Source: Bacteroidales bacterium
Lineage (GTDB): Bacteria; Bacteroidota; Bacteroidia; Bacteroidales; UBA3663
Direction: 5' to 3'
NCBI GenBank assembly: GCA_045640225.1
Contig: JAZUEP010000136.1
Location: forward strand, 13,771 to 77,770
Length of the DNA stretch: 64,000 bases
Shown: in pieces, positions 6,701-44,697 of the stretch
Position numbering within the stretch: position 1 is the first letter of the stretch
How the letters are laid out: every line of letters starts with the position of its first letter
Notes under the pieces: model-generated
Database searches by the model: none
Seen by the model: only the letters and a program-made list of their open reading frames with translations
What the model was told of the DNA's origin: nothing
Program-made: the position numbers and the translations under genes

Positions 6701-8282
6701 TGGCTTCGAGGCCGACCCTGAGGACGTAGTGCTGCATGTACTGGCCAACGTGAACGACGAGGGCTTCGAAGAGCTGGGCATCGTGGACTACAACAACGGT
6801 GCCGAGGGCTGGGCACGCGCCTCGTTCCTGCTGCCTGCTGGCATCGTAGCCCCTGAAGGCCATGCCGCCAGCAACGTACAGATAGCCTTCGTGGCCGAGG
6901 CCCTGTTGCCAACAGCATCGGTATTCATCGACCAGATCAAGATAGGTGAAGGCGTACCATGCGACCTTGCAGCCATCGGCATCAGCGGTGCTAAGCGCAT
7001 CGAGGCAGGAGAGACCGCCAAGCTGCAGATTGCTGTGGCCAACTACGGCACATCGGTAGCCGAGGGCTATCAGGTAGTACTGCACGCCACGGTAGACGGC
7101 GAGGCCATGGCCGACGTCATCCTGACCGACAATGGCAACGCCCTGAACCCAGGCCAGAGCACGACCTATACGACCGAAGTGGCTCCTGCACGCTCGTTGG
7201 CAGGCAAGACCGTGGTATACACGGCCGAGGTAATCACAGAAGGCGACGCAAATGCCGAGAACAACCTGACATCGGCTCTGAAGATGCTGATCCACGGTTC
7301 GACACTGCCTGTAGCCGAGGACCTCAAGGCCGAAGCCGCGAACGAGGGCGGCATCGTACTGACCTGGCAGGCACCATCGCGCAACGAGATTACCGATCCG
7401 GTGAACGATGACTTCGAGGATTACGAGTCGTTCATCATCGACGAAATCGGCGACTGGCTGACCTACGATGGTGACGGCAACATTCCTGTCTACTTCAGCG
7501 GTCCGGAGATTCCTCACTGCTTCGACCTGAAGGCTTGGCAGGTATGGAGTCCGGAAGAGGCCGGCTTCAGCACCGAGAAGTTCGACGTGCTGGTGGCACA
7601 TTCAGGCAACAAGTACCTGACCTCGTGGACCGGTTCGGACGGTGCAACCACCACTCTGCCAACCGAAGACTGGCTGATTTCGGCCGACGTACAGGGCGGC
7701 ACGGACGTAAACTTCTATGTGCGCGTTCCGAATGCTGGCTCGGATCCTCAGGGTATCCGCATGATGTACTCGACCACCGACCAGGAGCCAGAGTCGTTCG
7801 TCGAATTTGACAGCGATGAGATTGTTGGCACGACCGAGTGGGTATACCTGTCGTACACCCTGCCAGCCGATGCACGCTACTTTGCCGTCGTGGCCTACAA
7901 CAATGGTGGTATGTGCACGGTGATCGCACTGGACGATATCGAGTTCACCCCACTCTATGGCGCAACGACCAAGCTCACACTGAAGGGTTACAACGTATAC
8001 CGCAATGACGAGCTGATCGCCAGCGAGGTAGAGGAGACCACCTTCGTCGACACCACCGCCGAGGCCGAACTGAACAGCTACAACGTAACGGCAGTATGGG
8101 CCGAGGGCGAGTCGAACTACAGCAACACGGCCGAGGCCAACGCCATCGTCGGACTTGACCGCATCGAGAAGGCCGAGGCCGAGCGCCAGACCTACAACAT
8201 GGCCGGACAGCGCGTCAACGCTACCGAACGCGGTGCCTACATCACCCGCCAGGGCAATGAGGTACGCAAGCTGATCAAGTAA
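3738..8282 (+). CDS. Very large T9SS-secreted surface protein (choice-of-anchor-J-like, FN3-like and CARDB-like modules)
   Basis: 1514 aa with a signal peptide. DDWLISPAIAL and EDWLISADV are typical of choice-of-anchor J modules. There are repeated Ig/FN3-like segments and a CARDB-like DLAAIGISGAKRIEAGETAKLQIAVANYG. The tail ...YNMAGQRVNATERGAYITRQGNEVRKLIK resembles a T9SS C-terminal sorting domain. Confidence 0.8.
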   Translation: MKRKVSISMMALCGVAAIATAYNSPRIEAMLQNGLSTDNAARNAGKKTMTVVNQSARPGTRLVQPMGHNNTHRIAAAPNMADSLVFYGLKYNDQGYNDIAGGPYNVIGWRGAKDQKKWDVSPEIQTGAAACYAKGKFYTFEANDKEELHMYTYDAETWKLESDDIVATSGVLRQVAAYNPTNGKAYVMAWGDLDWDTWVTMRPIFEVDLEAKSAHEIGGRLEQLFIQTMFFDNEGQCYGIPYNENELYKISLEDASYEKVCDLDLPFPKTAHSMSAVTDPVTNLTYWAVPSNETSENFGHSYLYTIDRQTGHCELVGQLPNNEHVLGLYLKYAEPASPAAASNFGFADGQLTFTVPTTTYCSGEELSDELKACIVIDGGEEEQYTVEPGQTASIAMELSEGFHQFNVRISNAAGHGAERVFDAFVGNDAPSASTDVQLEIVDGVATLTWKAATTSVNGGPYDDASVHYTITRYPEDMVVAEGLQETTYTEAVSDARAHYQYKVTAFAGETEGESALSNEVAYGSVWYAPYTEEFKYDSDFATFKIHDGRGDDHNTPDQSTWWWLESQQKAYLSGCGSWNPDLGEFGGYGMDDWLISPAIALKAGQDYRVRYDFEAISVPEHLELYLSKGTDVDGELTLLNEATISWEDESTWKRCEIFSVEEDGLYHLMWRDNTPVASYSLMLDNIRFDVYANYEAPAAVAELTATAAEGTALENTLTFTAPTQTYKGETLSNIERIDIYRNGSRKATYTFESPAPGAQLAWTDTECGNGMNEYRVVAYNAAGQGQEAVISNWVGLDIPAQVVLTSYYMNDQNQAVVSWEAVGNRGIHGGFVDPTDVTYSLCCYEEWNWDDHWPAVKQGLTETTATDDVTQMWWQDMKKYLVRATNAAGTNDGTQFAIALGDAYQTPFCESFAWGFAGNSPWTLFADSYYYAWNITDGSGMAVKPYDDDNGMLSWQYIQDESNTQRMQGPRVSIVDLEQPELSFMMWHGFEADPEDVVLHVLANVNDEGFEELGIVDYNNGAEGWARASFLLPAGIVAPEGHAASNVQIAFVAEALLPTASVFIDQIKIGEGVPCDLAAIGISGAKRIEAGETAKLQIAVANYGTSVAEGYQVVLHATVDGEAMADVILTDNGNALNPGQSTTYTTEVAPARSLAGKTVVYTAEVITEGDANAENNLTSALKMLIHGSTLPVAEDLKAEAANEGGIVLTWQAPSRNEITDPVNDDFEDYESFIIDEIGDWLTYDGDGNIPVYFSGPEIPHCFDLKAWQVWSPEEAGFSTEKFDVLVAHSGNKYLTSWTGSDGATTTLPTEDWLISADVQGGTDVNFYVRVPNAGSDPQGIRMMYSTTDQEPESFVEFDSDEIVGTTEWVYLSYTLPADARYFAVVAYNNGGMCTVIALDDIEFTPLYGATTKLTLKGYNVYRNDELIASEVEETTFVDTTAEAELNSYNVTAVWAEGESNYSNTAEANAIVGLDRIEKAEAERQTYNMAGQRVNATERGAYITRQGNEVRKLIK

Positions 8283-8381: not shown

Positions 8382-10100
8382 ATGAAACACTTTCTAATTC
8401 TGGTCCTCGCGACCATCCTCCTCGGTACGGCCAATGCCCAGGTGGAACTATCGTACTGTACACACGACATCGAACAAGGATTCGGGTCGGAGGGCACGAT
8501 CTACACGCCCTACGTGCAGTTTCCGGCACAGACGGTAAAGCCCTATGAAGGAGCGACCGTCACCCGTATACTCATCGGACTGAAATCGGACGTCACGAAT
8601 GTGACTATCTACATAAAGAACTCACCTCTGGACAATCGTCCCCTGTACTCACAGCAGGTAGGCCAACTAGCTGCCGGATGGAACGAGGTGACACTGGACG
8701 AACCCTACACCCTACCTGCCGACCAGGATCTGGCCATCGGCTACCGGGCTCGCCTGACGAAGAATGGCGGCATAGGCTACAGCACGGAACACAATTCGCT
8801 GGCCGACCAGATCTACATCAACCAGTCGGCCCAATGGACCACCTGTGGCGGTTCGATCTGCCTCCGTGCGGTGCTCGAAGGCGACTGCCTACCTACCACC
8901 GAAATGGTACTTGACCGCATCGCCGACCGTAGTGTTGATCCGCTCGACGACAATATCAGTCTACTGGGCATTGTACACAACATGGGCACAGCCGAGGTCA
9001 CAAGCTACACCCTTGCCTGTCGCATCGACGACACGGACTTCGAGCCGCAGACTTTCAGCTGCCAACTGCCCACCAATGCGGCCGACACCTTCCTGCTTAC
9101 TCTACCCAACGGTCTCGCCATGGGTCAGCATACAGCCACTGTCAGCCTCCTCGAAGTGAATGGTAAGACTGACGCTTACGAGCCGAACAATCACACTACA
9201 TTCAGCCTTAACGTGCCTGATCGCCGCTTCTCGCGTCGCGTCGTATGCGAAGAGTACACAGGCCTCTGGTGCGGTTGGTGCCCACGTGGCCTTGTCGGCC
9301 TCGAGCTGATGAAGGAACTGAAAGGCGACCGTTTCATAGCCATCAGCATCCATGGCGGCATGGGCGATCAGCTTGAGATTCCAGCCGATAGTTCGTACTC
9401 ATACTATGACTTCTGGGCAACGATCCCCGGAGCACCGTCCAGCAAACTTGACCGTCGTTTGTCTGGCGACCCGTTCTACGACATCGAGCGCCTTTACGCG
9501 ATGGAGACTGCCACCGACTGTCACATTGCGGTAGAATCCAAGGTCTGCTGGACGGCCGATTCTATGCAACTCGACGTCTGCACACAGCTCATTGCCGATG
9601 CCGACTTCGACGTATCGCCCTACAATGTAGCCTACGTCGTGCTCGAGGATTCAATCACAGGTTATTGGCAGACCAACTACTACAGTGGTGAGGACTATCC
9701 CTTCTATGGTTGGGAGCAGAAGGACCGTTATACGAATGACGTTGTCTTTGACGATGTGGCACGCGGCATCTTCGGCTCCGTCCAGGGGACGCCTTACACT
9801 TCGGATCCTATCATGGCGTTGCAACCTGTCGAGCATGTGGCCAACATCGCCTTACCAGCCGAGGTCAGCAATCGTCGCCAAGTACATGTAGCCACACTCA
9901 TCATCGACTCACGTACCGGCTACATTGCCAATGGACACAATACATGGCCTGAGGGTAACGGATCGGATGTCATAAATCACGTTCGTCCCGTCGTCCCCGC
10001 TCATGCTATTCCTACCTTCAACCTCATGGGCCAACGCGTCGCCTCGGGGCACCAAGGCTTTGAGGTCAGCAACGGCCGCATACACAGCATACATTATTAA
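8382..10100 (+). CDS. Omp28-related / thioredoxin-like CxxC surface protein, probable T9SS cargo
   Basis: Signal peptide MKHFLILVLATILLGTANA. EEYTGLWCGWCPRG is a thioredoxin-type CxxC in the context seen in Omp28-related proteins. The tail ...FNLMGQRVASGHQGFEVSNGRIHSIHY is CTD-like. Confidence 0.55.
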   Translation: MKHFLILVLATILLGTANAQVELSYCTHDIEQGFGSEGTIYTPYVQFPAQTVKPYEGATVTRILIGLKSDVTNVTIYIKNSPLDNRPLYSQQVGQLAAGWNEVTLDEPYTLPADQDLAIGYRARLTKNGGIGYSTEHNSLADQIYINQSAQWTTCGGSICLRAVLEGDCLPTTEMVLDRIADRSVDPLDDNISLLGIVHNMGTAEVTSYTLACRIDDTDFEPQTFSCQLPTNAADTFLLTLPNGLAMGQHTATVSLLEVNGKTDAYEPNNHTTFSLNVPDRRFSRRVVCEEYTGLWCGWCPRGLVGLELMKELKGDRFIAISIHGGMGDQLEIPADSSYSYYDFWATIPGAPSSKLDRRLSGDPFYDIERLYAMETATDCHIAVESKVCWTADSMQLDVCTQLIADADFDVSPYNVAYVVLEDSITGYWQTNYYSGEDYPFYGWEQKDRYTNDVVFDDVARGIFGSVQGTPYTSDPIMALQPVEHVANIALPAEVSNRRQVHVATLIIDSRTGYIANGHNTWPEGNGSDVINHVRPVVPAHAIPTFNLMGQRVASGHQGFEVSNGRIHSIHY

Positions 10101-10115: not shown

Positions 10116-12575
10116 ATGAAATCTTATTTACTCACAATTGTCATGGCTCTCTTTGCCATGAGCGTAGTAATAGCCCGCCCGGCCTACCCCGGTCTGCTCT
10201 ATGCTACACTCGAAGATGGTACTCACGTTGCATACCACATGGTTGGCGACGAGTTCTCACATGCCTACCTCACCCTCGATGGACGTTACATCGAACGTGT
10301 GGCTGACCTTCAAGCTGTGGCTAACGCCGCTACATTGTCCGAAGATACAGAGCTTTGGCGCTATGTCGAGGCTCCCCTCTCGTCGGCTGAGAATTCGCCA
10401 CTAAAGGACTCACAAGCTCGTGCCAACCGACGTCCGGCTTCGGACAACCCGTACACCGACTTTCCTACTATTGGCGAGGTTCGTGGACTTGTACTGATGG
10501 TCGAATACACCGATGTTGAGTTCCAGCCCGAACACACACAAGAACTCTTCCAACGCCAGCTCAACGAGGAAGGCTACAGCGACTACCGCGCTACAGGTTC
10601 GGCACGTGATTATTTCATTGCCCAGTCCATGGGCCAGTTCCGTCCCCAGTTCGACGTTGTAGGTCCTTGTAAACTACCTCACACCATGGCCTATTATGGA
10701 GGCAACTCTATGGGAGGAGACAAGCGACCGGGCGAAATGGTTACCGATGCCTGCCGCTATGCCCATGACTCGCTCGGCATCGATTTCAGTCAGTATGACT
10801 ATGATCAGAATGGCGACGTCGATTTCGTCTTCGTTCTCTACGCTGGTTATGGCGAGAATTACGGAGCATCGCCCAACACCATCTGGCCACACATGTCAAC
10901 ACTGCGTGACCAACGGATCTATTTCGACCTAGATGGTGTCAACGTCAATCTCTACGCTTGCAGTTGTGAACTCAATGGTCGCAGAGGCACTGAGCTAGAC
11001 GGCATCGGTGCTGTATGCCATGAGTTCGGCCACGTTCTCGGCCTACCCGATGTATACAACACCCGTAATCAAGGACAAGTACAACTCGGACAGTGGGACG
11101 TCATGGATTCCGGCTCGTACAACAACGATTCGCGTACACCTCCTTCTTATACTGCATTCGAGCGCGTACAGCTCGGTTGGATGGAGCTCATCGAGCTCAC
11201 CGATCCTGTCGACTCGGTATTTGTCCCCGAAATCACGCAGAGTAACATCGCCTACCGTATCTCGACCAACGATCCAGACGAGTTCTTTACCCTCGAGAAC
11301 CATCAACAGGTAGGTTGGGATGCACCTCAAGGCGGACGTGGTCTGATGATCATTCATGTCGACTACGACCGCTCGCTCTGGGATGCTGATGCTATCAATG
11401 CTTCTAATCATCCTCACTATGACCTCATTGAAGCCGATGGTACTGCAGGCCGTACGTATGAGACTGATCTCTATCCAACACCATCGAACAATCGCTTCAC
11501 TGACTACTCGACGCCTGCTTCTAGTACTTGGCGTGGCAAGCCCCTCGAAAGTGGGGTAACACACATTACCCAACATGATAACGGAACCATCAGCTTCCGA
11601 TTCAAGAACGACCGTCTGAATTGTCCACAAGTATTGCCCGCCACCGATTTGACTACGACCTCGTTCCGTGTCAACTGGACCTCAGTCGAAGGTGCTATCG
11701 GCTATCGCATCCACATGTATGAGGAGCTGGCAGATTCGCTCAACGATCTTATCTTGGCCGAAAACTTCTCTCTGGCTACCTCGGGAGAATATCCCAAGGC
11801 TTCGGGTGAAAACATTGCTCCTAATATCGACAAATACGTTCACACCACTGGATGGTCCGGACAAGATATTTACCAATGTGGCGGCATGATCCGTCTGGGT
11901 GGCTACGGCTACTCAGGCAAGATTTCGACACCACTATTCGAGACATCAAAGTCCGACTCTATCTCCGTTTCGCTTTTCTGCTGCGCCTATACGGGCAAGA
12001 GTGTCAATTACACCATCGAGTTGCTCGATGCCGAGAGCAACATTCTGCAAGCCGATACACTCAAGGCCGATCGCAACATGCAGACTCCCATTGTCCACTA
12101 TGGACAGCTGCCATCACAGTATCACATTCGCATCGTATCCCAAAAGGAGCGTCTCTTCATCGATGACCTACGTATAGTACATGGCCAACGAGACAGCCTC
12201 AGCATCTGGACTGCAGGCCCTCAGCAGTGGGATATTGAGTGTGAAGGTGAAGCTATCGATGCAGACTTCGAGTTTGCTTCAACTGACGATACTGACGCCA
12301 CGGTTATCCTCTCCCATCAGATTTCTGATCTCGAGCCTGGCCTCACTTATCACTACAACATCACAGCCCTCGATCCTGAACCATTTTGCCAATCTCTCCC
12401 AACCGAGACTGTCGATGTTACACTTCCACTTACCGATGGCATCCATTCCATCCAAGCCGATAGCGTTACCGATGGAATCGTCCACGACCTTCAGGGCCGC
12501 ATAGTTGGAACTGCTCACCAAGATCTTCCTTCCGGCCTCTACCTTATCAATGGTCAGAAGATACTGATACGCTAA
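10116..12575 (+). CDS. M6 (immune inhibitor A-like) family metalloprotease, T9SS cargo
   Basis: Zinc motif CHEFGHVLGLPDVY. A signal peptide is present. The C-terminal ...VHDLQGRIVGTAHQDLPSGLYLINGQKILIR is a classic T9SS sorting-domain ending. Confidence 0.8.
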   Translation: MKSYLLTIVMALFAMSVVIARPAYPGLLYATLEDGTHVAYHMVGDEFSHAYLTLDGRYIERVADLQAVANAATLSEDTELWRYVEAPLSSAENSPLKDSQARANRRPASDNPYTDFPTIGEVRGLVLMVEYTDVEFQPEHTQELFQRQLNEEGYSDYRATGSARDYFIAQSMGQFRPQFDVVGPCKLPHTMAYYGGNSMGGDKRPGEMVTDACRYAHDSLGIDFSQYDYDQNGDVDFVFVLYAGYGENYGASPNTIWPHMSTLRDQRIYFDLDGVNVNLYACSCELNGRRGTELDGIGAVCHEFGHVLGLPDVYNTRNQGQVQLGQWDVMDSGSYNNDSRTPPSYTAFERVQLGWMELIELTDPVDSVFVPEITQSNIAYRISTNDPDEFFTLENHQQVGWDAPQGGRGLMIIHVDYDRSLWDADAINASNHPHYDLIEADGTAGRTYETDLYPTPSNNRFTDYSTPASSTWRGKPLESGVTHITQHDNGTISFRFKNDRLNCPQVLPATDLTTTSFRVNWTSVEGAIGYRIHMYEELADSLNDLILAENFSLATSGEYPKASGENIAPNIDKYVHTTGWSGQDIYQCGGMIRLGGYGYSGKISTPLFETSKSDSISVSLFCCAYTGKSVNYTIELLDAESNILQADTLKADRNMQTPIVHYGQLPSQYHIRIVSQKERLFIDDLRIVHGQRDSLSIWTAGPQQWDIECEGEAIDADFEFASTDDTDATVILSHQISDLEPGLTYHYNITALDPEPFCQSLPTETVDVTLPLTDGIHSIQADSVTDGIVHDLQGRIVGTAHQDLPSGLYLINGQKILIR

Positions 12576-12603: not shown

Positions 12604-12737
12604 GAGGCTGTGTCAAAAGACCCAGCAAATGATAAATATTAAAGATTATTTACCCCCGCTACAGCATTGTGTAACGGGGGTATCCTTATTATTTATCCTT
12701 TAATATTTAGTATCTCGTGGCTTTTGACACGGCCACA
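12604..12737. repeat. About 130-bp nested imperfect palindrome between convergent genes (probable bidirectional terminator / REP-like hairpin)
   Basis: Outer arms are GGCTGTGTCAAAAG (12607-12620) and CTTTTGACACGGCC (12721-12734). Middle arms are ATAAATATTAAAG and CTTTAATATTTAG. The inner 8-bp stem is TACCCCCG / CGGGGGTA (12651-12658 / 12675-12682). Confidence 0.5.
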
Positions 12738-12786: not shown

Positions 12787-13797
12787 TTAATAGACCCAAG
12801 GCAAGAGACAGAGGCGAGCTTGAGACGTCATCTGGAGCTTTCCTTCGCCATTGGTGGTGAGTGGACGTTCGCCAAATAGGTAAAGGAAACCGCCCGTGAA
12901 GGTAACGCCCAGCGAGTCGGTCTGCAAGCCATCCTTGAGAGCGTAACTCCGAACCAAACCGCCAGACTGATGATACTGCTGTTTGGTGTGAATACCATCC
13001 TTGGCGGCCTGTACGGTGATCTGACAGCCTGGATGAACGCGGACGTATTCGTCGCTGGCAATGCCATGCTGGTGACGACCTACGACGCGAAGCTGTCCCT
13101 TGCCGCTGAAGATCAGCTGACCTTCGGAAAAGAGGCATCCCTTCTCGTCCTCGACCTGGGCTGCAGCATCAAGGGCATCCGACGCATAGGACTCGGCATC
13201 GGCCAGGACGTTAGACGAACCGTCGGCCAGCGTGACGAAACAACGCTTCTTATGCTGGATGCTGATGGCTGGACCATCGCCACAAGTGAGGTCAAGGCCA
13301 TCGAGCAGGAGCTGGAACTTCTTGTTGCTATAGACCTTGATCTGGCCATCCGACGACTGGCCCTTCAGGCAATAGGTGACCTTGCCACGCGCATCGTCAG
13401 CACCGGCTTCGCTCTCGAGGTTTCGCACGATGACGCGCGAACCATTGACCTCGATTTCGACGCCCTTCTCGGCCTGAGGATTGTCGACAGTGACCGTCGA
13501 ACCATTCCAGGTCAGCGTGACGGTACGCGAAGGCTTGAAGTCCTGATTCTCGAGGAAGTTGTCGAAATCTGGATCTTCCGGATCGACAGGAACCACCTCG
13601 ACAGGCTCGAAAAAGCTGGACGAAGGCAAGGTATTCTCCCACAACTGGAGCACCTCGTCGTACGAGATAGGCTCGGACGGCTCAGGTTCCGGAACGTCCT
13701 CTGGAAGTATGAACTGGTAAGTATCTGCACACGAGGCCCACAGCATCATAGGCAGCAGCAGGCCGAGGGTACGCGATACATTGCGGAACTTTATCAT
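12787..13797 (-). CDS. Lipoprotein of the Cthe_2159-like carbohydrate-binding (beta-helix) family
   Basis: Lipobox LWASC. The repetitive pattern is TVTLTWNGSTVTV..., LLLDGLDLTCGDGPAISIQ..., CLFSEGQLIFSGKGQLRVVG..HGIASDEYVRVHPGCQITVQAAKDGIHT, as in Cthe_2159-family proteins. Confidence 0.65.
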   Translation of the reverse strand: MIKFRNVSRTLGLLLPMMLWASCADTYQFILPEDVPEPEPSEPISYDEVLQLWENTLPSSSFFEPVEVVPVDPEDPDFDNFLENQDFKPSRTVTLTWNGSTVTVDNPQAEKGVEIEVNGSRVIVRNLESEAGADDARGKVTYCLKGQSSDGQIKVYSNKKFQLLLDGLDLTCGDGPAISIQHKKRCFVTLADGSSNVLADAESYASDALDAAAQVEDEKGCLFSEGQLIFSGKGQLRVVGRHQHGIASDEYVRVHPGCQITVQAAKDGIHTKQQYHQSGGLVRSYALKDGLQTDSLGVTFTGGFLYLFGERPLTTNGEGKLQMTSQARLCLLPWVY

Positions 13798-13805
13798 GGG
13801 CGGAA

Positions 13806-14612
13806 TCAGAACTGGAAGTTATAACCAAGGGTGAACAGATGGCCGTTAGCCTCGTCGTTGTCGGCACGATCCTTATAGCGCCAGGTCAGCGACAGCGACG
13901 AACGCTTGTTGAAGCTGTAATCGACACCAACCGAGTAGCGAAGCTGATCGACAGCAAAACCATCGGCCAGATTGTTGAGCAGCTCGACGCTGGCTGTAGG
14001 CGTGAAGCGACAATGACGGATATTATACGTCAGCTGCATACGTGAGCGCAGGATATGGTCCTGATCGCCAGCCTCGACCTCGTCAGTGAGACGCTGACCC
14101 GTAGGACGGCCGATGCCGAACTGTGGATCGGTAGAGTACTTCGGCACGTACTGCAGAGGCGAATGGGTAATCTGATAGCGCTCGCGCAACGACAGCTTGA
14201 AGCGGCCCATCTCGTGCTGGAACGTAACGCCAGCATACCAGCGATGACGTGGAGCCCAGTGGCCGCTTACGACGTTACCCTTCGACGTGACGCGACTCAG
14301 GTGGTAACGATCCATCAGGACGTAGCCCAGATCGGTCTTCATCCATGACGTAACCTTGTAGTCGAGGCCCAGGTCGAAGGACCAACGCTCGAGGGCAGAG
14401 AATTGCGACTGCGAGCGAACCTCGGCTTCGGCCTGCAGCTTCAGGCCCTTGACCAGCTTGTGCTCGGCACTGACCGAAAGGCCATAGCCGAAGTCGTCGT
14501 CGGCCTGTGCCAACAACGTACCGCACGAAACCATGGCCAGCAAGCAGGCGGCAAGGCAGCGAAGCAGGGTCATGTTGCCCCACGAGCAAATATGCGATAG
14601 GATACCGTGCAT
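13806..14612 (-). CDS. Putative outer-membrane beta-barrel protein (DUF2490-like)
   Basis: Signal peptide MTLLRCLAACLLAMVSCGTLLAQ. Alternating amphipathic strands end in the terminal ...LFTLGYNFQF (C-terminal Phe). The ATG overlaps the upstream stop as TGATG. Confidence 0.5.
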   Translation of the reverse strand: MHGILSHICSWGNMTLLRCLAACLLAMVSCGTLLAQADDDFGYGLSVSAEHKLVKGLKLQAEAEVRSQSQFSALERWSFDLGLDYKVTSWMKTDLGYVLMDRYHLSRVTSKGNVVSGHWAPRHRWYAGVTFQHEMGRFKLSLRERYQITHSPLQYVPKYSTDPQFGIGRPTGQRLTDEVEAGDQDHILRSRMQLTYNIRHCRFTPTASVELLNNLADGFAVDQLRYSVGVDYSFNKRSSLSLTWRYKDRADNDEANGHLFTLGYNFQF

Positions 14613-15277
14613 CAGAACTGAGGAATCTTTGACATTTCGTCGACAGTGTTCTCCTCGTTGCCGTCGGCTGGTTCGTAATATACCTTCAGCAGGGCCATAT
14701 CCTTCAGGAAGTTGACCGTACCTACGTCGACCTTGACGACCTTGACTCCCAGACGAGCCTCGAGATCCTTGATCATCTCGTCGCGACGGGCAGGCAGGAT
14801 AAGGTCGATGCGGTCGTACTTGACGTACTTGCAGGCCAGATGTTTCAGTTTACGGGTAAGTTCGGCCAGGGCGATAGCAATGACGAAGATGGCATTGATC
14901 ATAATCATGCCTACCCAACCTACAGCATCACCGGCCAGGGCATTGACCACCGAGATGGCAATGATGGCGAAGAGGTAGGTCATCTCGCGAACGGGCATCG
15001 ACTCGGTACGATAGCGGATGATCGAGAAGATGGCGAACAAGCCGAGAGCAAAGCCCGTCTTGAGCTTGACGGTACCCAGCAGCGCGACGATCATGAAGGT
15101 CGAGAGTGAGATGATGGCGAAGGTAAAGTAGTAGTCAGCACGCTTCGACTTACGATAGTAGAGGAAGTGGATGATGCCGATAACGACCACCACATTGATG
15201 AGCAGACGGAGAAGGAAGTCCTCCATGCCGATAGGGTTCAGCAGTTCGGCTCCTGCATCGATAATTTCTTGATCCAT
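14612..15277 (-). CDS. DUF4956 domain-containing membrane protein
   Basis: FLLRLLINVVVVIGIIHFLYYRKSKRADYYFTFAIISLSTFMIVALL ... GLFAIFSIIRYRTESMPVREMTYLF is typical of DUF4956. It overlaps the upstream VTC ORF by 40 nt; an alternative ATG at 15226 removes the overlap. Confidence 0.7.
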   Translation of the reverse strand: MDQEIIDAGAELLNPIGMEDFLLRLLINVVVVIGIIHFLYYRKSKRADYYFTFAIISLSTFMIVALLGTVKLKTGFALGLFAIFSIIRYRTESMPVREMTYLFAIIAISVVNALAGDAVGWVGMIMINAIFVIAIALAELTRKLKHLACKYVKYDRIDLILPARRDEMIKDLEARLGVKVVKVDVGTVNFLKDMALLKVYYEPADGNEENTVDEMSKIPQF

Positions 15278-16062
15278 TGTATTTTTTCTTTGAAGTTATT
15301 ATTTCGGAGTGTAGGATTGGTGAGCGTCTGTCCAATACAATACTTGCTGAAGCCACCGGGATGGACGTGCATGCGGATCAGCAGGTCGTGCATGGGCGAA
15401 GGATTGTGACCATCGCGTTTCAGCTCGATGATGGCCAGATGTGCCAGCGAGGCATCGGCCAGGGTCTCGAGATTGTGAAATCGAAGGTTGAGGTCGATCG
15501 TCAGGCGCTCGGTCATGGCGTGATTGACCAGTGTGATACGGTCGAAGAAGTTCTCGAGCTGAGGCTGTAACGTATCCGGACGCAACGGATCGGGTTCGAC
15601 CTGGCCATCGACATGCGTGAAACGAGGCCCCTGTCCCAACTTGGCAAGAATAGGCGGCACCAGGGCATTGGCCTCGACAGGATCGTTAGGCACCTCCATT
15701 TGGCGACGTTTCTTGGCCGTACGTCCGTGGTTGTTCTTGTGCTTGATCTCGAGGAAAGCTTCGCCCGTATCCATGTAGGTTCGCATACGGACCTTCTGAC
15801 GCGGACGATGTCCCACCTCATGGCGGGTATACATCTGGTGATCGGGAGTATCGAGGTAGATGGTATGATAGCCTGCCATGCGCTCGCCATCCTTATTGGT
15901 CTGGACGAAATAGTCGGCACTGGCAGCCTCGAGCAGTTCAGCAAGCTTTGAGAGCCGCACGACGTACTTGGTATCGGTGCGGTTCATCAGCTTGACACCG
16001 GACATCTGATCGAGTCCGATGGGCTGGAAGGCAGTCAGTATTTGACGAATAGCGTTGTACAT
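15238..16062 (-). CDS. VTC (polyphosphate polymerase) domain-containing protein
   Basis: LMNRTDTKYVV, RQKVRMRTYMDTGEAFLEIKHKNNHGRTAKKR and the AIIELK..DG pattern match bacterial VTC/CYTH-like tunnel-fold proteins. Confidence 0.75.
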   Translation of the reverse strand: MYNAIRQILTAFQPIGLDQMSGVKLMNRTDTKYVVRLSKLAELLEAASADYFVQTNKDGERMAGYHTIYLDTPDHQMYTRHEVGHRPRQKVRMRTYMDTGEAFLEIKHKNNHGRTAKKRRQMEVPNDPVEANALVPPILAKLGQGPRFTHVDGQVEPDPLRPDTLQPQLENFFDRITLVNHAMTERLTIDLNLRFHNLETLADASLAHLAIIELKRDGHNPSPMHDLLIRMHVHPGGFSKYCIGQTLTNPTLRNNNFKEKIQWIKKLSMQEPNC

Positions 16063-16094
16063 CGTAGGGATGAGGTTTTAGTTATAAACGGGCG

Positions 16095-16102
16095 CAAAGA
16101 TA
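16095..16102 (-). promoter_or_regulatory. -7 promoter box (TATCTTTG) for the VTC operon
   Basis: Plus strand reads CAAAGATA, 32 nt upstream of the ATG at 16062. Confidence 0.45.
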
Positions 16103-17293: not shown

Positions 17294-18700
17294 ATGAATG
17301 ACTTCCTGACACTACTGAACAGCTACCTATGGGGATGGCCGATGATTGTCCTGCTGGTAGGTACGCATCTTTACCTGACGATACGTCTGCGCTTCCCTCA
17401 GCGCCACATGGCCAAAGCCATCCGCCTCTCGGTCGAGAAGGACAAGGGATCGGAAGGCGACGTCTCACAGTTCTCGGCACTGGCTACTGGCCTGGCTGCC
17501 ACCATCGGTACAGGCAATATCATCGGTGTAGCCACAGCCGTCACGATGGGCGGTCCGGGTGCAATCCTGTGGTGCTGGATTACCGGTGTGCTGGGCATCG
17601 CCACCAAATATGCCGAGGGTCTGCTCTCGATCAAGTATCGCGTCCGCACGGCCAACGGCAAGATGTTAGGCGGTCCGATGTACGCCATCGAGCGTGGTAT
17701 GGGCTGCCGCTGGTTGGCCATCCTGTTTGCCGTCTTTGCATTTCTGGCCTCGTTCGGCATAGGCTGCACGGTACAGAGCAACGCCATCGCTACCATGGCA
17801 CAGGAGAGCTTCGGATGGGATGCTCAATGGGTTGGCGGCATACTGGCCGTACTACTGGGAGCCGTGATTCTGTTCGGTGTCAAAGGCATTGCTCGCGTCT
17901 GTGAGGTGCTGGTACCGTTCATGGCCATCTTCTACGTGCTGGGCTGTCTGGCTCTGCTGGTAGTGAATGGCCAGTATCTGGGCGAGGCCATCAGCGTCAT
18001 CGTTCGCAGTGCTTTCAGTGCACAGGCGGCTGCGGGTGGATTCGTCGGCTCGACCCTGATGGTGGCCATGCGCTTCGGTATTGCGCGTGGTCTGTTCAGC
18101 AACGAAGCCGGTCTCGGATCCGCTCCTATCGTTGCCGCCGCAGCCAAGACACGCAATCCGGTACGTCAGGCATTGGTTTCAAGTACCTCGGTCTTCTGGG
18201 ATACGGTCGTAATCTGTGCCTTGACAGGCCTTGTTCTGGTTACAACCATTCTGGCAGACAATGGCGTGGATTCGTCAGCCTCAGCAGCCTTGACCAAGCG
18301 TGCCTTCGAACAGCTGCCACTCGTCGTAGGCGGACTGAATCTAGGCGCCATCGTATTGAGCATCGCCATCTTTACCTTTGCCTTCAGCACCATCCTAGGA
18401 TGGAGCTATTATGGCGAGAAGGCTCTCGAATACCTTTGTGGCCGCTACGGACGTGTGGGGCGTTACGTCTTCCGCGTACTGATTACGATAGGTACCTACT
18501 ATGGTGCAACGAATGCGCTGGATGTGGTCTGGAACTTCGGCGATGCTGCCAATGCACTGATGGTCATCCCGAACCTCATCTGCCTGATAGCCCTGAGCGG
18601 AGTACTGGTACGCGAAACGCGACACTACCTCTGGGAAGATCGCTTGGACGAAGAGGATACCTCACCCACTCCCATGGCCGACGACCAGGCCTCGATGTAA
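17294..18700 (+). CDS. Alanine/glycine:cation symporter (AGCS family)
   Basis: SQFSALATGLAATIGTGNIIGVATAVTMGGPGAILWCWITG and FSNEAGLGSAPIVAAAAKT are AGCS signatures. The protein is polytopic. Confidence 0.9.
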   Translation: MNDFLTLLNSYLWGWPMIVLLVGTHLYLTIRLRFPQRHMAKAIRLSVEKDKGSEGDVSQFSALATGLAATIGTGNIIGVATAVTMGGPGAILWCWITGVLGIATKYAEGLLSIKYRVRTANGKMLGGPMYAIERGMGCRWLAILFAVFAFLASFGIGCTVQSNAIATMAQESFGWDAQWVGGILAVLLGAVILFGVKGIARVCEVLVPFMAIFYVLGCLALLVVNGQYLGEAISVIVRSAFSAQAAAGGFVGSTLMVAMRFGIARGLFSNEAGLGSAPIVAAAAKTRNPVRQALVSSTSVFWDTVVICALTGLVLVTTILADNGVDSSASAALTKRAFEQLPLVVGGLNLGAIVLSIAIFTFAFSTILGWSYYGEKALEYLCGRYGRVGRYVFRVLITIGTYYGATNALDVVWNFGDAANALMVIPNLICLIALSGVLVRETRHYLWEDRLDEEDTSPTPMADDQASM

Positions 18701-19836
18701 AGGCTGGCCACTCGGTCTGCATCGTGATGACGACAGACGAAACTGAGCGCTGCCTGCCGGAGTTGTTCGATGGCCTCAGCATCGGTCAGCAGACGTTCTA
18801 GCAAGGCGTAATTGTCGTCATCCGCAAAAGGACGCAAATTGATGATACCGCTCGCTTCCACATCATTGAGGAAGCGGGCGTATTCTGTCTCATAGCCACT
18901 GATTACGACCTTGCCCTGGCTGAGACTTTCGAGGGCACCCATGGCAGGCGTATAGCTGTACAATTGGTCGACCACGACATCGGCTTCGGCCACCAGACGA
19001 CGATATTCGGCAAAAGGCACGGATACAATCTTGTGCAGACGGACGCGATCGGGATAGGCTTTGGCCAGTCGATCGAACAAAGGTTCAAGCTGGTCAGTAC
19101 CCTTCATCTGTGCTCGTGTACGTTGTGCTGCAAATAGGATAGACACAGGCCTATCGGTCGATGGCCGATCACTGTGCCCTGCAATATCTCCCTGTTGATC
19201 ATTCGCTGAACCCGCCTCCGGATTGTCCTGAGGCTTAACAGCAAGCGTCAGTACCGGCAGCGGAACATAGTAAAGGCGCGAACGGAACGAAGGTTCGTCG
19301 TACACTTTCCAGTACTCGTACAGACAAGCCACCAGACAGCCGGCATTGGCCATGACGTGACGTGTCAGAGCCGCCTTGTCCGCAGCATTCCAGTTGGCCA
19401 GCCGACGACGGTTGTTGTCGTGCTCGATCGGACGGCCATAGGCCTGGAAGTCGGTATAGTCGAAAAGCTGTGGATCCTGCATACGATTGACCACATAATA
19501 GTCGTCACCGAAACAGCCCACCGATACCAACCGATTGTGACGACGCAAGTAATCGAAGACCCAGCGGTTCCAACGTGCCTTCACATCCAGAAAGACCGGA
19601 TTGATAATCTGCACGACATCGTATCCACGCATACGGGGCAACAGTGTAGCGAGACGCGACAGATACAGCAACGAACCCAAGGGACCGGAATGCTGTCGAC
19701 GAAGGTCAACGTCGCGAGGATAATCCTTCCAGCCATCGCCATCGCTGACGAGCAACACGTCATGCCCTGCGCGCCGCAAGGCCTCGCAGAGTGTGTGATG
19801 AAGGTTGCTGTATTCGCCTATCAGGAGTATCTTCAT
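18625..19836 (-). CDS. GT4/GT1-like glycosyltransferase
   Basis: MKILLIGEYSNLHHTLCEALRRAGHDVLLVSDG is an N-terminal Rossmann beginning. The C-terminal half has a GT-B-like ...YSYTPAMGALESLSQGKVVISG. It starts 11 nt after the CotH stop. Confidence 0.55.
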   Translation of the reverse strand: MKILLIGEYSNLHHTLCEALRRAGHDVLLVSDGDGWKDYPRDVDLRRQHSGPLGSLLYLSRLATLLPRMRGYDVVQIINPVFLDVKARWNRWVFDYLRRHNRLVSVGCFGDDYYVVNRMQDPQLFDYTDFQAYGRPIEHDNNRRRLANWNAADKAALTRHVMANAGCLVACLYEYWKVYDEPSFRSRLYYVPLPVLTLAVKPQDNPEAGSANDQQGDIAGHSDRPSTDRPVSILFAAQRTRAQMKGTDQLEPLFDRLAKAYPDRVRLHKIVSVPFAEYRRLVAEADVVVDQLYSYTPAMGALESLSQGKVVISGYETEYARFLNDVEASGIINLRPFADDDNYALLERLLTDAEAIEQLRQAALSFVCRHHDADRVASLYIEAWSSAMGVGEVSSSSKRSSQR

Positions 19837-19847
19837 ACGAGTTTGTT

Positions 19848-21347
19848 TCAGAGGACAATATGTTTCGAACGACCATGTAAATGAAGCGATGCCTGACGTC
19901 GACGTTCATCTGTGACTGGACGGCCGAAGAGGTCGTAACACGAAGGCGCCTCACTGACCGTGGGCACGACAATGGCCGAGGGAGGTTCGTAGCCATAGTA
20001 GGTATCGAGGAAGGCCAGACGATCGCGAATCCACTGGCAGATGTACGACTGTTCGTCGTCGATGTCGCGTAGCCTGCAGTTCGACGACGACCATCGGTCG
20101 ACCTCACGCTGCCAGGCTCCGGTCGAGCGAAATAGGTCGAAATAATGAGTGAAACGATGCGTCAGCTGTTCTTCGGTCCACCATGTGTTGCGCAATTCGG
20201 CATATCGCACGGCCAACGTATCTTCGTAATGACGATACCACTTGGTGAAACGTGTATGGAAGTTCGATTTGTTCTCAAGCTCCTTCCCTGCCGAAACGCG
20301 ATTGCCTATGTAATCGCGTCCCCACGAGGTATCGAGGTCCCAGGGCGTTACCGACACACGCTGATCGGCCGATGACTGATCGTAGAACCAATAGAAGACG
20401 TTCTTGCCCACGTTGTCGTTAGCATAGAGCAGGTCAATAAAGAGGACATAGTCGATGAAAACAGGGATATCGAAGTACTTGCCAACGCCCTGATTGAACG
20501 TCGTAGAAGTCTTGGCTGCCATGAAGTAGATATTCGAGCGCAATGGCTCCCACGTCCAGGGTTCGCCTTCGGTGGCATCAGGATATTCACCTTGCATGCC
20601 GTCGTATTTAGAACGGGTATTGTCAGGCTCATTGGTCTGATAGAGCAGATAAGGTGTGCGTGTAGAATTGCCATTGACCGCCTTGTAGAGCAAGCCTCGA
20701 TGATAGGCATCGACGTGTACGGGTAACGAATCGGCATCGAGGGCATCGTGTTCCTTCTTATACTTGCGCAACTGTAGTTGCTTGCGGTCCACACGCTCCA
20801 TCAGGCAGAACAGGCCGTAATAGGCCTCGTTGACATACACCTCGACATACTGGCCACGATAGCCATTGATAGCCTTTGGCTCGGCTTCGTGGTGATAGGT
20901 CGGACGCGAAGAATCGAGCCACAGATCCATCGACACACGATTGCGCACCTTACCGAAGTCCGAAGCCATGGCATCGAGTATCCAATAGTTGTCCTTGCGC
21001 ATTCCAGCCAGACGGACATCGACCGACGAGCCTTCCGCATCGACAAACTTCAAGGCGAAGTTAGGCTTTTCGTAGATCAGCGAGGTTGCGCCACGCTGTC
21101 GCACCTTGCAGTCATAGGTGCGCGTACTGTCGGCCTCGTAGAGCGTGAAGGTGGCAGGGATGAACGTCTTCGAGCCAAATCGATCCACATCGTACGTAAG
21201 TGCTACGACAGGCAGCTGGTCGACGTAGGTCAGATCGGGGATGAACTCCTCCGCACCATCATTATCCTGCGGATGAGCCAGGACGTCGAACGACGTCAGG
21301 CAGACGAGGAAGAACACATGCAGGAAGGCCAAAACAGAGAGTTTCAT
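19848..21347 (-). CDS. Secreted CotH family (atypical kinase fold) protein
   Basis: A signal peptide is present. NYWILDAMASDFGKVRNRVSMDLW, NDNVGKNVFYWFYD and VTPWDLDTSWG resemble CotH motifs. Confidence 0.8.
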   Translation of the reverse strand: MKLSVLAFLHVFFLVCLTSFDVLAHPQDNDGAEEFIPDLTYVDQLPVVALTYDVDRFGSKTFIPATFTLYEADSTRTYDCKVRQRGATSLIYEKPNFALKFVDAEGSSVDVRLAGMRKDNYWILDAMASDFGKVRNRVSMDLWLDSSRPTYHHEAEPKAINGYRGQYVEVYVNEAYYGLFCLMERVDRKQLQLRKYKKEHDALDADSLPVHVDAYHRGLLYKAVNGNSTRTPYLLYQTNEPDNTRSKYDGMQGEYPDATEGEPWTWEPLRSNIYFMAAKTSTTFNQGVGKYFDIPVFIDYVLFIDLLYANDNVGKNVFYWFYDQSSADQRVSVTPWDLDTSWGRDYIGNRVSAGKELENKSNFHTRFTKWYRHYEDTLAVRYAELRNTWWTEEQLTHRFTHYFDLFRSTGAWQREVDRWSSSNCRLRDIDDEQSYICQWIRDRLAFLDTYYGYEPPSAIVVPTVSEAPSCYDLFGRPVTDERRRQASLHLHGRSKHIVL

Positions 21348-21371
21348 CAGCGAAGATACTTATTTTTGCTG

Positions 21372-21379
21372 CAAAGATA
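21372..21379 (-). promoter_or_regulatory. -7 promoter box (TATCTTTG) for CotH plus the GT4-like gene
   Basis: Plus strand reads CAAAGATA, 24 nt upstream of the ATG at 21347. Confidence 0.45.
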
Positions 21380-21421
21380 AGCATTTTTGGAGAAAAATGA
21401 CCAACGGAACGTTTTTTTTTG

Positions 21422-21429
21422 TATTTTTG
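21422..21429 (+). promoter_or_regulatory. -7 promoter box (TATTTTTG) for the GT2 gene
   Basis: TATTTTTG followed by CACC, 20 nt upstream of the ATG at 21450. It lies inside the longer 21387 ORF, which argues for the 21450 start. Confidence 0.35.
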
Positions 21430-21449
21430 CACCAAATTTTCTGCATTCC

Positions 21450-22475
21450 ATGCTTCTGAGTATTATAATTCCTGCCTATAACGTCGAAAAGTACATCGCC
21501 GCCTGCCTCGATTCGTGTCTCGGACAAGGCTTGCCGGATGGCGAGATGGAGATCATCGTGGTGGACGATGGTTCGACCGACGCTACGCCTTCGATCCTTG
21601 CTGACTATGCCACATGCCATGACTGCATACGGCTGATGCAACAGGCCAATCAGGGACAGAGCGTGGCCCGTAACAAAGCCATCGAAGCGGCTCGCGGACA
21701 ATACATCTACATGGTAGACAGCGACGACCGCATGATGGTGGACTCTGTCAGCGGACGGACGACATTGCCGATCGAGGCCATGCGCAGTGGACGTTACGAT
21801 ATCATCGGCGTGCAGGTATGGTATCAGCCAGAAAATGGAGAACGTCGGACCTGGAGTCACCAGATGGAACGCTGGCCATTCGACCAGGAATATGGGACGG
21901 GAGCCGACTTTCTGGCCACACACAACATTGAGGGACTGGTCTATGGTTACGTCTTCAGCAAACGACTGTTCGACCAACATCCTGAACTGCGCTTCACGCC
22001 TGGCATCTACCATCAGGACGAAGAACTGATCTTCAAGATCTTCACCCTGGCCGGACGGACAGTTTACAAGCGCGGATACACCTATCTCTACTATGAACAC
22101 ACGGGCAGCAGCATCAACACGCGTACCGAACAACGTCGTCGCAAGCTGATGGACGACTACCTGACCATACTACACAACCTCACGGCCTGGCGGGACCGCT
22201 ATGGTTCGGATGATCATCGCTCGCGGCAGCTAAACGATGTGATGCATTACAAGCTGTCGTATCTGGCCATGGACAACTTGCGCAAACTGATACACGACGG
22301 ATACGACACGGATTACATCCTGTACTTCATCGGCGAGTTGCAACGCCTGGGACTCTACCCTCTGCCGTGGCTGAAGGAGGTAAAATATGTGGGCATGAAG
22401 TTGCTGACCTGCAGACCACGTCTCGTGGCATGGTGGGCACGGAATCGGAAGTTGAACCAAATGATCGGATTCTGA
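21450..22475 (+). CDS. Family 2 glycosyltransferase
   Basis: MLLSIIIPAYNVEKYIAACLDSCLGQ...EIIVVDDGSTD...YMVDSDD. The track ORF starts at 21387, but the family-typical N-terminus and the promoter box favour 21450. Confidence 0.85.
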   Translation: MLLSIIIPAYNVEKYIAACLDSCLGQGLPDGEMEIIVVDDGSTDATPSILADYATCHDCIRLMQQANQGQSVARNKAIEAARGQYIYMVDSDDRMMVDSVSGRTTLPIEAMRSGRYDIIGVQVWYQPENGERRTWSHQMERWPFDQEYGTGADFLATHNIEGLVYGYVFSKRLFDQHPELRFTPGIYHQDEELIFKIFTLAGRTVYKRGYTYLYYEHTGSSINTRTEQRRRKLMDDYLTILHNLTAWRDRYGSDDHRSRQLNDVMHYKLSYLAMDNLRKLIHDGYDTDYILYFIGELQRLGLYPLPWLKEVKYVGMKLLTCRPRLVAWWARNRKLNQMIGF

Positions 22476-22478
22476 GCC

Positions 22479-24699: not shown

Positions 24700-24762
24700 T
24701 ATGCTGTTGGGTTGAAGAAAGGATCAGAGGTTCAAAGATTGGACTTGCAGGTCTGTCGTTGA

Positions 24763-26022: not shown

Positions 26023-26049
26023 TTTGCAAAGGGGAAAAACGATGGCCGA

Positions 26050-26703: not shown

Positions 26704-26760
26704 GGGCTTGCTGGGTTGTTATTGGACGAAACGTTTTTCTTCGAAAGCGATACAGATTTC

Positions 26761-27852: not shown

Positions 27853-27859
27853 CCTTTAA

Positions 27860-27901
27860 AATTACGAATTACAAATTACGAATTACGAATTACGAATTAC
27901 G
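27860..27901. repeat. Six tandem heptamers (AATTACG)n in an intergenic spacer
   Basis: AATTACG AATTACA AATTACG AATTACG AATTACG AATTACG, lying between the stop at 27923 and the start at 27852. Confidence 0.9.
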
Positions 27902-27922
27902 GGGTATTGTGCACCGAATGAA

Positions 27923-28885: not shown

Positions 28886-28902
28886 GTTGTCTGTCCGAAA
28901 TA

Positions 28903-36485: not shown

Positions 36486-36526
36486 CGCAATAGCTGGCTC
36501 TTGGTCTTCTAACCCTTATTCGTGTA

Positions 36527-44662: not shown

Positions 44663-44697
44663 AGTAATGAGTGAGGAATGTAGTAACTTTCGGGGCG

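Follow-up and report, generated by a model that had tools for sequence, protein, structure and literature searches.

A four-gene VTC-domain operon in a Bacteroidales bacterium as a possible split counterpart of the eukaryotic polyphosphate synthase-translocase

Introduction

What would a catalytic domain of the eukaryotic polyphosphate (polyP) machinery do in a bacterium with two membranes? The question is raised by a 64,000-nucleotide stretch of the genome of a Bacteroidales bacterium (GenBank assembly GCA_045640225.1, contig JAZUEP010000136.1, positions 13,771 to 77,770 of the forward strand), which we call the window. On its minus strand, at 12787-16062, lies a block of four tightly packed genes encoding, in this order, a VTC-domain protein, a DUF4956 membrane protein, a DUF2490 protein and a Cthe_2159-like lipoprotein. 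An initial annotation, made from the DNA alone, had called these four open reading frames (ORFs) and named their families; on our own reading of the ORFs all four are present at the coordinates it gave, and all four families (VTC, DUF4956, DUF2490 and Cthe_2159) were recovered by Pfam profiles above their gathering cut-offs.

PPK1 and PPK2 are credited with polyP synthesis in bacteria, and the VTC enzyme is regarded as eukaryotic. The yeast VTC complex couples synthesis of the polymer to its translocation through a basic transmembrane channel (PMC9911596). Here we propose, with a probability that we put at roughly 45%, that the operon is a split bacterial counterpart of this synthase-translocase, with export of polyP, extended to two membranes. 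Within this proposal we infer that polyP is the product and DUF4956 a channel, which way the polymer flows, what the barrel selects and what the lipoprotein does.

Results

The VTC-domain protein is predicted to have a Vtc4-like tunnel fold

The first gene (15238-16062, minus strand) encodes a soluble, basic protein of 274 amino acids, a candidate polyP polymerase of the triphosphate tunnel metalloenzyme (TTM) type. It matches the Pfam VTC family (PF09359) with an E-value of 1.7e-32 and a score of 113.3 bits, against a gathering cut-off of 23, over profile positions 1-231 of 235. VTC is the only domain that Pfam detects in the protein, which has no SPX sensor and no Vtc1-type transmembrane domain. 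The family is strongly basic (median isoelectric point, pI, 9.55) and has more than 7,000 relatives. Because sequence profiles failed to reach Vtc4, we used structure prediction and Foldseek. The AlphaFold2 model (pLDDT 94) shows a tunnel fold, and ranks 1 to 12 of the Foldseek search are all structures of the VTC complex (Vtc4 and Vtc3 chains; E-values from 9e-13 to 4e-10, TM-score about 0.6). The top entries are yeast Vtc4, as crystal structures and in a cryo-EM complex (3g3r, 3g3q and 8i6v; E-value about 1e-12), while E. coli YgiF, Vtc2 and other TTMs rank below it. As modelled, the window protein is thus a tunnel-fold protein that lies closest to yeast Vtc4 among TTM structures.

We then mapped residues onto Vtc4, using as the query a tunnel domain identical to 3g3q_A. 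The N-terminal half was aligned by hhalign and hmmsearch, and the C-terminal half by local alignment and motifs. Eight positions could be placed: K32 on Vtc4 K200, R92 on R264, R94 on R266, K107 on K281, R175 on R361, E213 on E426, S239 on S457 and K240 on K458. All eight residues are invariant in 51 of 51 homologues, and they are also conserved across nine aligned bacterial lineages, among them Deinococcus, Aminobacter, Nitratireductor, Nonomuraea and a metagenomic clade. The form of the complex that carries R264A, R266A and E426N in the cryo-EM work is catalytically impaired (PMC9911596), and Lys-458 has been called catalytic for polymerisation and dispensable in a tripolyphosphatase (PMC4641920). 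Tunnel enzymes that hydrolyse their substrates have an acidic patch at places that are basic in Vtc4 (PMC4641920). At two glutamate positions of this patch the window protein is basic like Vtc4, with Arg28 and Lys215; at another, D30, it keeps an acid in place of Thr198 of Vtc4. The initial annotation had drawn an analogy with the eukaryotic VTC catalytic domain, and both the Foldseek ranking, with Vtc4 at its top, and the conserved catalytic residues agree with it.

DUF4956 is a constant neighbour of the VTC gene

The second gene (14612-15277, minus strand) encodes an inner-membrane protein of 221 amino acids that matches the whole of the Pfam DUF4956 profile (PF16316; positions 1-169 of 169, E-value 1.1e-51, 175 bits) and that we propose as the partner, or channel, of the polymerase. 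The family is large, with 1,971 representative clusters at 50% identity (E-value at most 1e-3). In the AlphaFold2 model (mean pLDDT 78), five helices at residues 15-44, 48-65, 70-90, 96-114 and 116-140 are followed by a C-terminal beta-alpha-beta-beta domain, similar to ACT domains, at 148-202. Searched against structures in the PDB, the model gave nothing significant, only weak ACT-domain matches. The stretch GFALGLFAIFxIIRYRTExMPVREMTYLF is invariant and common to 42 homologues. By the positive-inside rule, its arginine-rich loop and the ACT-like domain would both be cytoplasmic; that the protein forms a pore is pure conjecture.

A DUF4956 homologue of Streptococcus intermedius has been described as having an MgtC-type transmembrane domain and an ACT domain (PMC12345266). 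When a profile of the 42 homologues was compared by hhalign with Salmonella MgtC, for which we used an unverified query, the probability was 0.1%, and Pfam gave DUF4956 no MgtC match at an E-value of 0.01 or below. The likeness between MgtC and DUF4956 is one of architecture only, namely five helices and an ACT-like domain.

The association of DUF4956 with VTC is constant: the two genes adjoin in every locus where both are visible, and this adjacency spans Bacteroidales, Deinococcus, alpha- and gamma-proteobacteria, an actinomycete and several metagenomic clades. The two genes are often called as overlapping, by 8-32 nt, and such overlaps recur in unrelated lineages.

A predicted outer-membrane barrel and a beta-helix lipoprotein complete the operon

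The third gene (13806-14612, minus strand) encodes a protein of 268 amino acids that we propose as an anion-selective conduit. It matches Pfam DUF2490 (PF10677; E-value 6.4e-30, 104.7 bits), with additional weak matches to OMP_b-brl and Porin_4, and it has an N-terminal signal peptide and the C-terminal sequence GYNFQF; a terminal phenylalanine is found in 61 of 74 homologues. The Pfam matches, the signal peptide and the C-terminal aromatic residue together point to an outer-membrane beta-barrel. The family is basic (median pI 8.9). Two gene calls (P0242 and P0331) show DUF4956 fused to DUF2490; we weighed them as Rosetta-stone evidence and set them aside. In P0242, the call that we read, the barrel's own signal peptide is still present, so that this call is a read-through of adjacent genes.

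The fourth gene (12787-13797, minus strand) encodes a predicted beta-helix lipoprotein of 336 amino acids, whose signal peptide ends in a lipobox-like LWAS followed by Cys23. Its match to Pfam Cthe_2159 (PF14262; E-value 1.9e-37, 129 bits) is partial, covering profile positions 11-169 of 262, and residues 141-296 match the crystal structure of Cthe_2159 (4PEU) with an E-value of 1.5e-13. Cthe_2159 of Clostridium thermocellum is a beta-helix protein resembling polysaccharide lyases. The window protein shares with it this match of about 155 residues; unlike it, the window protein spans no more than about 60% of the profile, is a lipoprotein with an acidic linker rich in proline and glutamate, and belongs to a phosphate-type operon rather than to a plant-cell-wall context. 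An acidic run directly past the lipobox cysteine is the surface-export signal of Bacteroidetes lipoproteins. Acidic tails of the type C-x-[KN]-D-D-[TS]-D (for example C-V-K-D-D-T-D) occur in 26 of the 29 homologues with a detectable lipobox; the window protein, with LWAS-C-ADTYQF, has a single aspartate after the cysteine, a weak surface-export signal.

The gene order is conserved in Bacteroidales

We collected related loci by scanning one genome per GTDB species with the VTC alignment, keeping the best 80 of 587 confirmed relatives, and determined their gene content by ORF calling and phmmer. All 80 loci are of Bacteroidales type, with VTC identities of 45-56%, although a few records bear other taxon labels. 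The initial annotation had pointed to synteny as a check on the operon, and the order VTC, DUF4956, DUF2490 is kept in 74 of these loci; a contig end interrupts three or more of the other six. One or two Cthe_2159 genes are found in 55 of the 80, nearly always directly after the barrel. Three more loci have the same gene order and unrelated flanks. The flanking genes that do recur are only lineage-specific housekeeping genes (rsgA, frr and pyrH) and, in a minority, a LytS/LytTR pair. Attached Pst, SusC or SusD genes were absent from the Bacteroidales loci. In Bacteroides thetaiotaomicron, the DUF4956/DUF2490 pair is BT3498-BT3499 (PMC10434189).

Two further kinds of gene accompany subsets of these loci. 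Between DUF2490 and Cthe_2159, 27 of 52 loci have a gene for a secreted protein of 120-158 amino acids that ends in a type IX sorting tail (Por_Secre_tail, 2.8e-6). This fifth component is found in versions of Bacteroidaceae and Prevotellaceae type (for example L010, 12455-12952, and L059), and the window has no such gene. Some 8-9 of 83 Bacteroidota loci have a two-component system after the module, consisting of a LytS kinase and a LytTR regulator (for example L081, 13659-15563), and in locus L091 a HAMP kinase and an OmpR-type regulator (5146-7460) likewise stand after it. These adjoining systems are candidate regulators of the operon.

Other lineages surround the same core with different envelope proteins

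We regard the comparison with other lineages as the most informative. Across lineages, the core of the module is VTC plus DUF4956. Deinococcus taeanensis has the order CotH, VTC, DUF4956; in Deinococcus sp. QL22, VTC and DUF4956 adjoin an acid phosphatase gene and phnDCE. Nitratireductor has DUF4956, VTC, PiT and a phytase-like gene, and Aminobacter DUF4956, VTC and a phytase-like gene. The loci L091 and L092 run Cthe_2159, VTC, DUF4956, Porin_O_P, histidine kinase, response regulator, and the Cthe_2159 protein upstream of VTC in L091 has 735 amino acids. L093 has VTC, DUF4956, Porin_O_P and CotH. L090 has a YaiO barrel, VTC and a DUF4956 joined to CotH, followed by three more CotH genes. L094 has VTC, DUF4956 and DUF2490, as in the window, and L097, a metagenomic contig, has VTC and DUF4956 followed by a MacB/FtsX-type permease (1720-2697), which may be another partner of export type. 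On a Pseudoalteromonas plasmid (L085), DUF4956 is followed directly by Porin_O_P (2.4e-47), and VTC is a remnant. In that plasmid, from Pseudoalteromonas sp. CuT4-3, only the C-terminal 100 or so VTC codons are left (7225-7921), overlapping a fragment of a lamin-tail-domain lipoprotein gene; DUF4956 and Porin_O_P are intact, and the module is apparently decayed or rearranged.

Judged by their family matches, diderms thus add to the core an outer-membrane barrel from at least three unrelated families, one of them predicted to be selective for phosphate or pyrophosphate. The variable extracytoplasmic partners are Cthe_2159, CotH and the phytase-like proteins, to which the literature adds DUF4832 (PMC7112168). 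Porin_O_P is the family of OprP and OprO, which are phosphate- and pyrophosphate-specific channels (PMC9769906), and in several operons outside Bacteroidales it occupies the gene position of DUF2490, directly after DUF4956. Unlike the Porin_O_P proteins of these operons, which have 342-390 amino acids, the window barrel has 268 and gave no Pfam match to Porin_O_P (PF07396); only its positional counterparts in L085, L091/L092 and L093 match that family. The suggestion of the initial annotation that the module spans the envelope gains from this comparison, since other diderms place a different outer-membrane barrel at the same point, Porin_O_P included, and Cthe_2159 recurs outside Bacteroidales.

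Gene junctions and transcription signals of the window operon

For the longest ORFs, and only for these, the junctions are those of the initial annotation: a 40-nt overlap between VTC and DUF4956, a 1-nt overlap (TGATG) between DUF4956 and the barrel gene, and an 8-nt gap before the lipoprotein gene. If DUF4956 starts instead at Met17 (15229), the overlap becomes an 8-nt gap after VTC, and if the barrel starts at Met14 (14573), it follows a 38-nt gap and has the canonical signal peptide MTLLRCLAACLLAMVSCGTLLAQA. The packing is tight whichever starts are used, so the coordinates and junctions bear out an operon-like arrangement.

A promoter-like box, TATCTTTG (16095-16102, minus strand), stands 33 nt upstream of the VTC ATG, within the 106-nt spacer that follows miaA (stop codon at 16169). 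It fits TAnnTTTG, which we take to be the Bacteroidetes-type -7 promoter consensus. A single box ahead of the operon had been noted in the initial annotation, and this is indeed the sole TAnnTTTG between miaA and the end of the operon, with none inside the operon. In the whole window the motif was found 24 times against 14.4 +/- 3.9 expected; as this is only a mild enrichment, the motif alone is weak evidence for a promoter. About 105 nt past the last stop codon lies a terminator-like hairpin (12651-12682, minus strand) with a 13-bp stem, seven G-C pairs and a weak T-tail, AATAATCTTT, and terminator-like sites show no excess over the shuffle expectation in this region. Judged from the sequence, one transcript for all four genes is likely.

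CotH kinases and other genes of the window

The initial annotation had also reported two genes for CotH-family kinases in the window, and Pfam bears out both CotH1 (19848-21347; 4.9e-41) and CotH2 (40866-42746; 1.2e-47), each of which has a signal peptide. They are transcription units separate from the operon, at distances of 3.8 kb (CotH1) and 24.8 kb (CotH2). Between the operon and CotH1 lie miaA, a symporter gene and a GT4-like gene. CotH1, which is co-oriented with the GT4-like gene, has a separate TATCTTTG box at 21372-21379; CotH2 is surrounded by unrelated genes. The further claim that CotH often neighbours the VTC and DUF4956 domains holds in other phyla, in our own loci as in the literature (PMC7112168), and fails in Bacteroidota, where none of 83 loci has CotH within 10 kb; neither phmmer nor three rounds of jackhmmer found CotH near the module in Bacteroidales. 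In one gene call that joins DUF4956 to CotH (P0310), a hydrophobic, lipobox-like linker would keep the ACT-like domain within the cell and put CotH on its outside. The call is possibly a read-through and is counted as evidence of adjacency and topology only.

CotH1 stands at the edge of a polysaccharide locus (18625-28906) with genes for GT2, acyltransferase-3, GT1, a Wzx-type flippase, a hexapeptide transferase, a DegT aminotransferase and a GNAT protein. As a kinase-fold protein in a glycan locus, CotH1 may act on a glycan. Similar short tails of the form [FY][DN]L.G[RQ]...G.K.[IL] end four secreted proteins of the window, namely CotH1, CotH2, a 572-aa protein (8382-10100) and an M6 peptidase (10116-12575). 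By eye, this shared tail resembles a truncated type IX sorting domain, and Pfam finds none at an E-value of 5 or below. Upstream of the 572-aa protein and the peptidase, an ORF of 1514 codons (3738-8282) has only a sub-threshold RGI_lyase fragment in Pfam and may encode a large secreted protein.

Elsewhere in the window, a bpMoxR-type AAA+ ATPase gene (6.2e-51) adjoins a gene for a VWA-domain protein (35334-38119); the pair resembles a partial MoxR-vWA ternary system and is unrelated to the VTC operon. At 44123-45653, the genes for a WYL/WCX-domain regulator and a NUDIX hydrolase, a small regulator-enzyme pair, share about 110 nt. No ppk gene is among the annotated ORFs of the window, and the PADLOC models of anti-phage defence matched none of the four operon proteins and neither CotH protein.

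Partial versions of the module have been described in Gram-positive bacteria

The initial annotation had called the module uncharacterised and without a demonstrated function. The second statement agrees with the open-access literature that we searched, which yields no biochemical study of a bacterial VTC/DUF4956 module. The first stands as far as function goes, although the module has not gone wholly unnoticed, a partial set having been described in Gram-positives (PMC7112168, PMC12345266). Whitfield et al. (2020) describe an accessory gene set at the pel operons of Gram-positives, made up of cotH, a 'poly-phosphate polymerase', DUF4956 and DUF4832 (PMC7112168), and NELoc-2 of Clostridium perfringens carries VTC-domain and CotH genes (PMC2879425). 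In S. intermedius (SIR_1591-1594), Pel-dependent aggregation in artificial sputum medium falls by half when DUF4956 or CotH is deleted, and Pel levels change (PMC12345266). The same study did not find the three-gene arrangement of CotH, VTC and DUF4956 outside pel loci (PMC12345266); in our loci it does occur outside them, in D. taeanensis, L090 and L093.

The Gram-positive pel accessory set shares with the window operon the VTC and DUF4956 core and a link to secreted envelope proteins, and it too has no biochemical function assigned. The window genome, like the pel set, carries CotH, in two copies, one of them at a polysaccharide locus. Unlike the pel set, the window operon has an outer-membrane barrel and a Cthe_2159 lipoprotein as partners, and a pel operon, DUF4832 and an adjacent CotH are all absent. 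To our knowledge, neither the four-gene version of Bacteroidales, nor the phosphate-selective porin at the barrel position, nor the link to Cthe_2159 across lineages has been described before.

Discussion

How might the four proteins act together? The soluble VTC protein would be a Vtc4-type enzyme that extends polyP with the gamma-phosphate of ATP, an activity that we infer from the fold and the residues found. The enzyme would dock on the cytoplasmic face of a DUF4956 oligomer, probably at the arginine-rich RYRTExMPVREM loop, and DUF4956 would give the nascent polyanion its way out of the cytoplasm. The driving force for this export would be the membrane potential, whose outer side is positive, like the lumenal side of the vacuole in the case of yeast VTC. 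The ACT-like domain would remain cytoplasmic and serve as a module for oligomerisation or ligand sensing. To go by its position and charge, the basic DUF2490 barrel might pass the phosphate polymer, or its pyrophosphate (PPi) or phosphate (Pi) products, across the outer membrane, taking the part that the phosphate-selective porin of the Porin_O_P family would have in the equivalent operons of other diderms. In what is the weakest step, the acidic beta-helix lipoprotein would bind the exported polymer at the cell surface, or trim or otherwise process it, possibly through bridging divalent cations. Once outside, polyP could serve as a surface polyanion or a cation store, or supply phosphoryl groups to secreted enzymes such as CotH.

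We favour a split, VTC-like system because the enzyme has a Vtc4-like fold, conserved catalytic residues and a strongly basic character, because VTC and DUF4956 are adjacent, and often overlapping, in every sampled lineage, and because deletion of DUF4956 or CotH in S. intermedius lowers Pel-dependent aggregation. The neighbouring Porin_O_P, YaiO, PiT, phytase-like esterase, acid phosphatase, phnDCE and MacB/FtsX genes suggest both a phosphate theme and a span of the envelope, and the recurrence of Cthe_2159 and CotH with the module suggests an extracytoplasmic role.

Several observations weigh against this proposal. A sequence profile built from Bacteroidales VTC proteins alone did not reach Vtc4 among PDB sequences, and the hhalign probability against Vtc4 is only 20%, so that the residue mapping leans on motifs and fold. 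At the acidic-patch position of D30, all aligned bacterial members have aspartate or glutamate where Vtc4 has Thr198, and the retained acid means that the chemistry may differ from that of Vtc4. DUF4956 is unrelated to the Vtc1-type channel domain, has no solved relative and carries few basic residues inside its helices. With a median pI of 4.67 and a net charge of about -17, the Cthe_2159-like lipoproteins are strongly acidic as a family, which makes simple electrostatic binding of a polyanion unlikely. OprP and OprO are known as uptake channels that are induced by Pi starvation (PMC9769906), and import through the barrel would be just as conceivable. Deletion of the VTC gene in S. intermedius did not reduce aggregation (PMC12345266), which argues against a simple linear pathway or implies redundancy. 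Finally, the open-access literature that we searched holds no biochemical data on bacterial members.

Could the operon work inward instead? The lipoprotein and barrel would then import Pi, PPi or polyP, and the VTC enzyme, anchored and regulated by DUF4956, would polymerise phosphate into a store that is cytoplasmic or attached to the membrane, with no export. A surface lipoprotein together with an outer-membrane barrel is the usual uptake layout of Bacteroidetes. The Porin_O_P relatives at the barrel position are, as just noted, channels for uptake (PMC9769906), the neighbouring PiT, phytase-like, acid phosphatase and phnDCE genes are acquisition genes, and the ACT-like domain of DUF4956 suggests ligand-controlled regulation. 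We nevertheless consider capture and storage unlikely. It does not account for the constant pairing of the polymerase with a five-helix membrane protein, often through overlapping genes, nor for the repeated presence of exopolysaccharide loci and of genes for secreted CotH kinases beside this pair (PMC7112168). In Bacteroidales the operon lacks attached Pst, SusC and SusD genes, and it encodes no energy source for the inward transport of a polyanion, which would have to proceed against the membrane potential. The enzyme might also be no polymerase at all, and hydrolyse, or transfer from, a triphosphate such as tripolyphosphate, a nucleoside triphosphate or a nucleotide signal, regulating the envelope or an exopolysaccharide together with DUF4956, while the barrel and the beta-helix lipoprotein handle polysaccharide. 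TTM tunnels that are nearly identical have very different activities, and AtTTM3 resembles Vtc4 yet is a tripolyphosphatase (PMC4641920); D30 keeps one acidic-patch position of the hydrolases, and Pfam names Cthe_2159 a carbohydrate-binding domain-containing protein. The VTC/DUF4956 pair is, moreover, attached to Gram-positive pel loci, where mutants of DUF4956 and CotH change Pel levels (PMC7112168, PMC12345266), and DUF4956 has been read as an MgtC-type transmembrane domain with ACT (PMC12345266). This seems rather unlikely to us, given that every Vtc4 catalytic residue tested is kept, including the polymerisation lysine that a tripolyphosphatase can spare (PMC4641920), that two acidic-patch positions are basic, as in Vtc4, and that the phosphate-selective porin, PiT and phosphatase neighbours point to phosphate over sugar. 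The hhalign comparison, with its unverified query, likewise gave no relationship to MgtC.

That the four genes are neighbours merely by chance or shared ancestry, with no joint function, we regard as highly improbable. In favour of this reading, the block is delimited by just one promoter-like motif and one weak terminator-like hairpin; against it, the order is kept in 74 of 80 loci whose flanks vary, with Cthe_2159 in 55, and the same types of component recur in other orders, with non-orthologous barrels, in distant lineages.

If the split VTC-like system is real, how far would it depart from its eukaryotic model? The window enzyme has in common with the yeast complex (Vtc4 with Vtc3 or Vtc2 and with Vtc1) its catalytic Pfam family, its closest structural match and eight residues, and each combines a tunnel enzyme in the cytoplasm with a membrane component of several helices; the far side of the membrane would also have the same sign of polarity. 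Unlike the eukaryotic complex, the bacterial version has no SPX domain and no covalently attached, three-helix transmembrane domain of the Vtc1 type. Its membrane partner is separately encoded and unrelated, with five helices and an ACT-like tail, its enzyme has an aspartate for Thr198, and there is a second membrane to cross. If the polymerase proposal is right, the product, polyP made from a nucleoside triphosphate, would be shared with PPK1 and PPK2. These enzymes are unrelated in fold and mechanism, come without envelope proteins dedicated to them, and leave their product in the cytoplasm.

A conserved bacterial VTC module would add a third source of polyP to PPK1 and PPK2, possibly with a periplasmic or surface pool. 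We also entertain, as quite unlikely on present evidence, a more specific scheme in which the module is a third, VTC-type route to polyP in bacteria, its product is made for export and not for a store in the cytoplasm, and exported polyP is the energy-rich phosphoryl donor of secreted CotH-family kinases. If this were true, CotH kinases, and perhaps other surface enzymes, could phosphorylate glycans or proteins in a compartment that has no ATP. An extracytoplasmic pool would bear on the buffering of cations and phosphate in the gut, on biofilm matrices, given the link to Pel in streptococci, and on the supply of phosphoryl groups to CotH. The module occurs in human-gut Bacteroides, as BT3498-BT3499 (PMC10434189), and the operon is carried by gut and rumen Bacteroidales.

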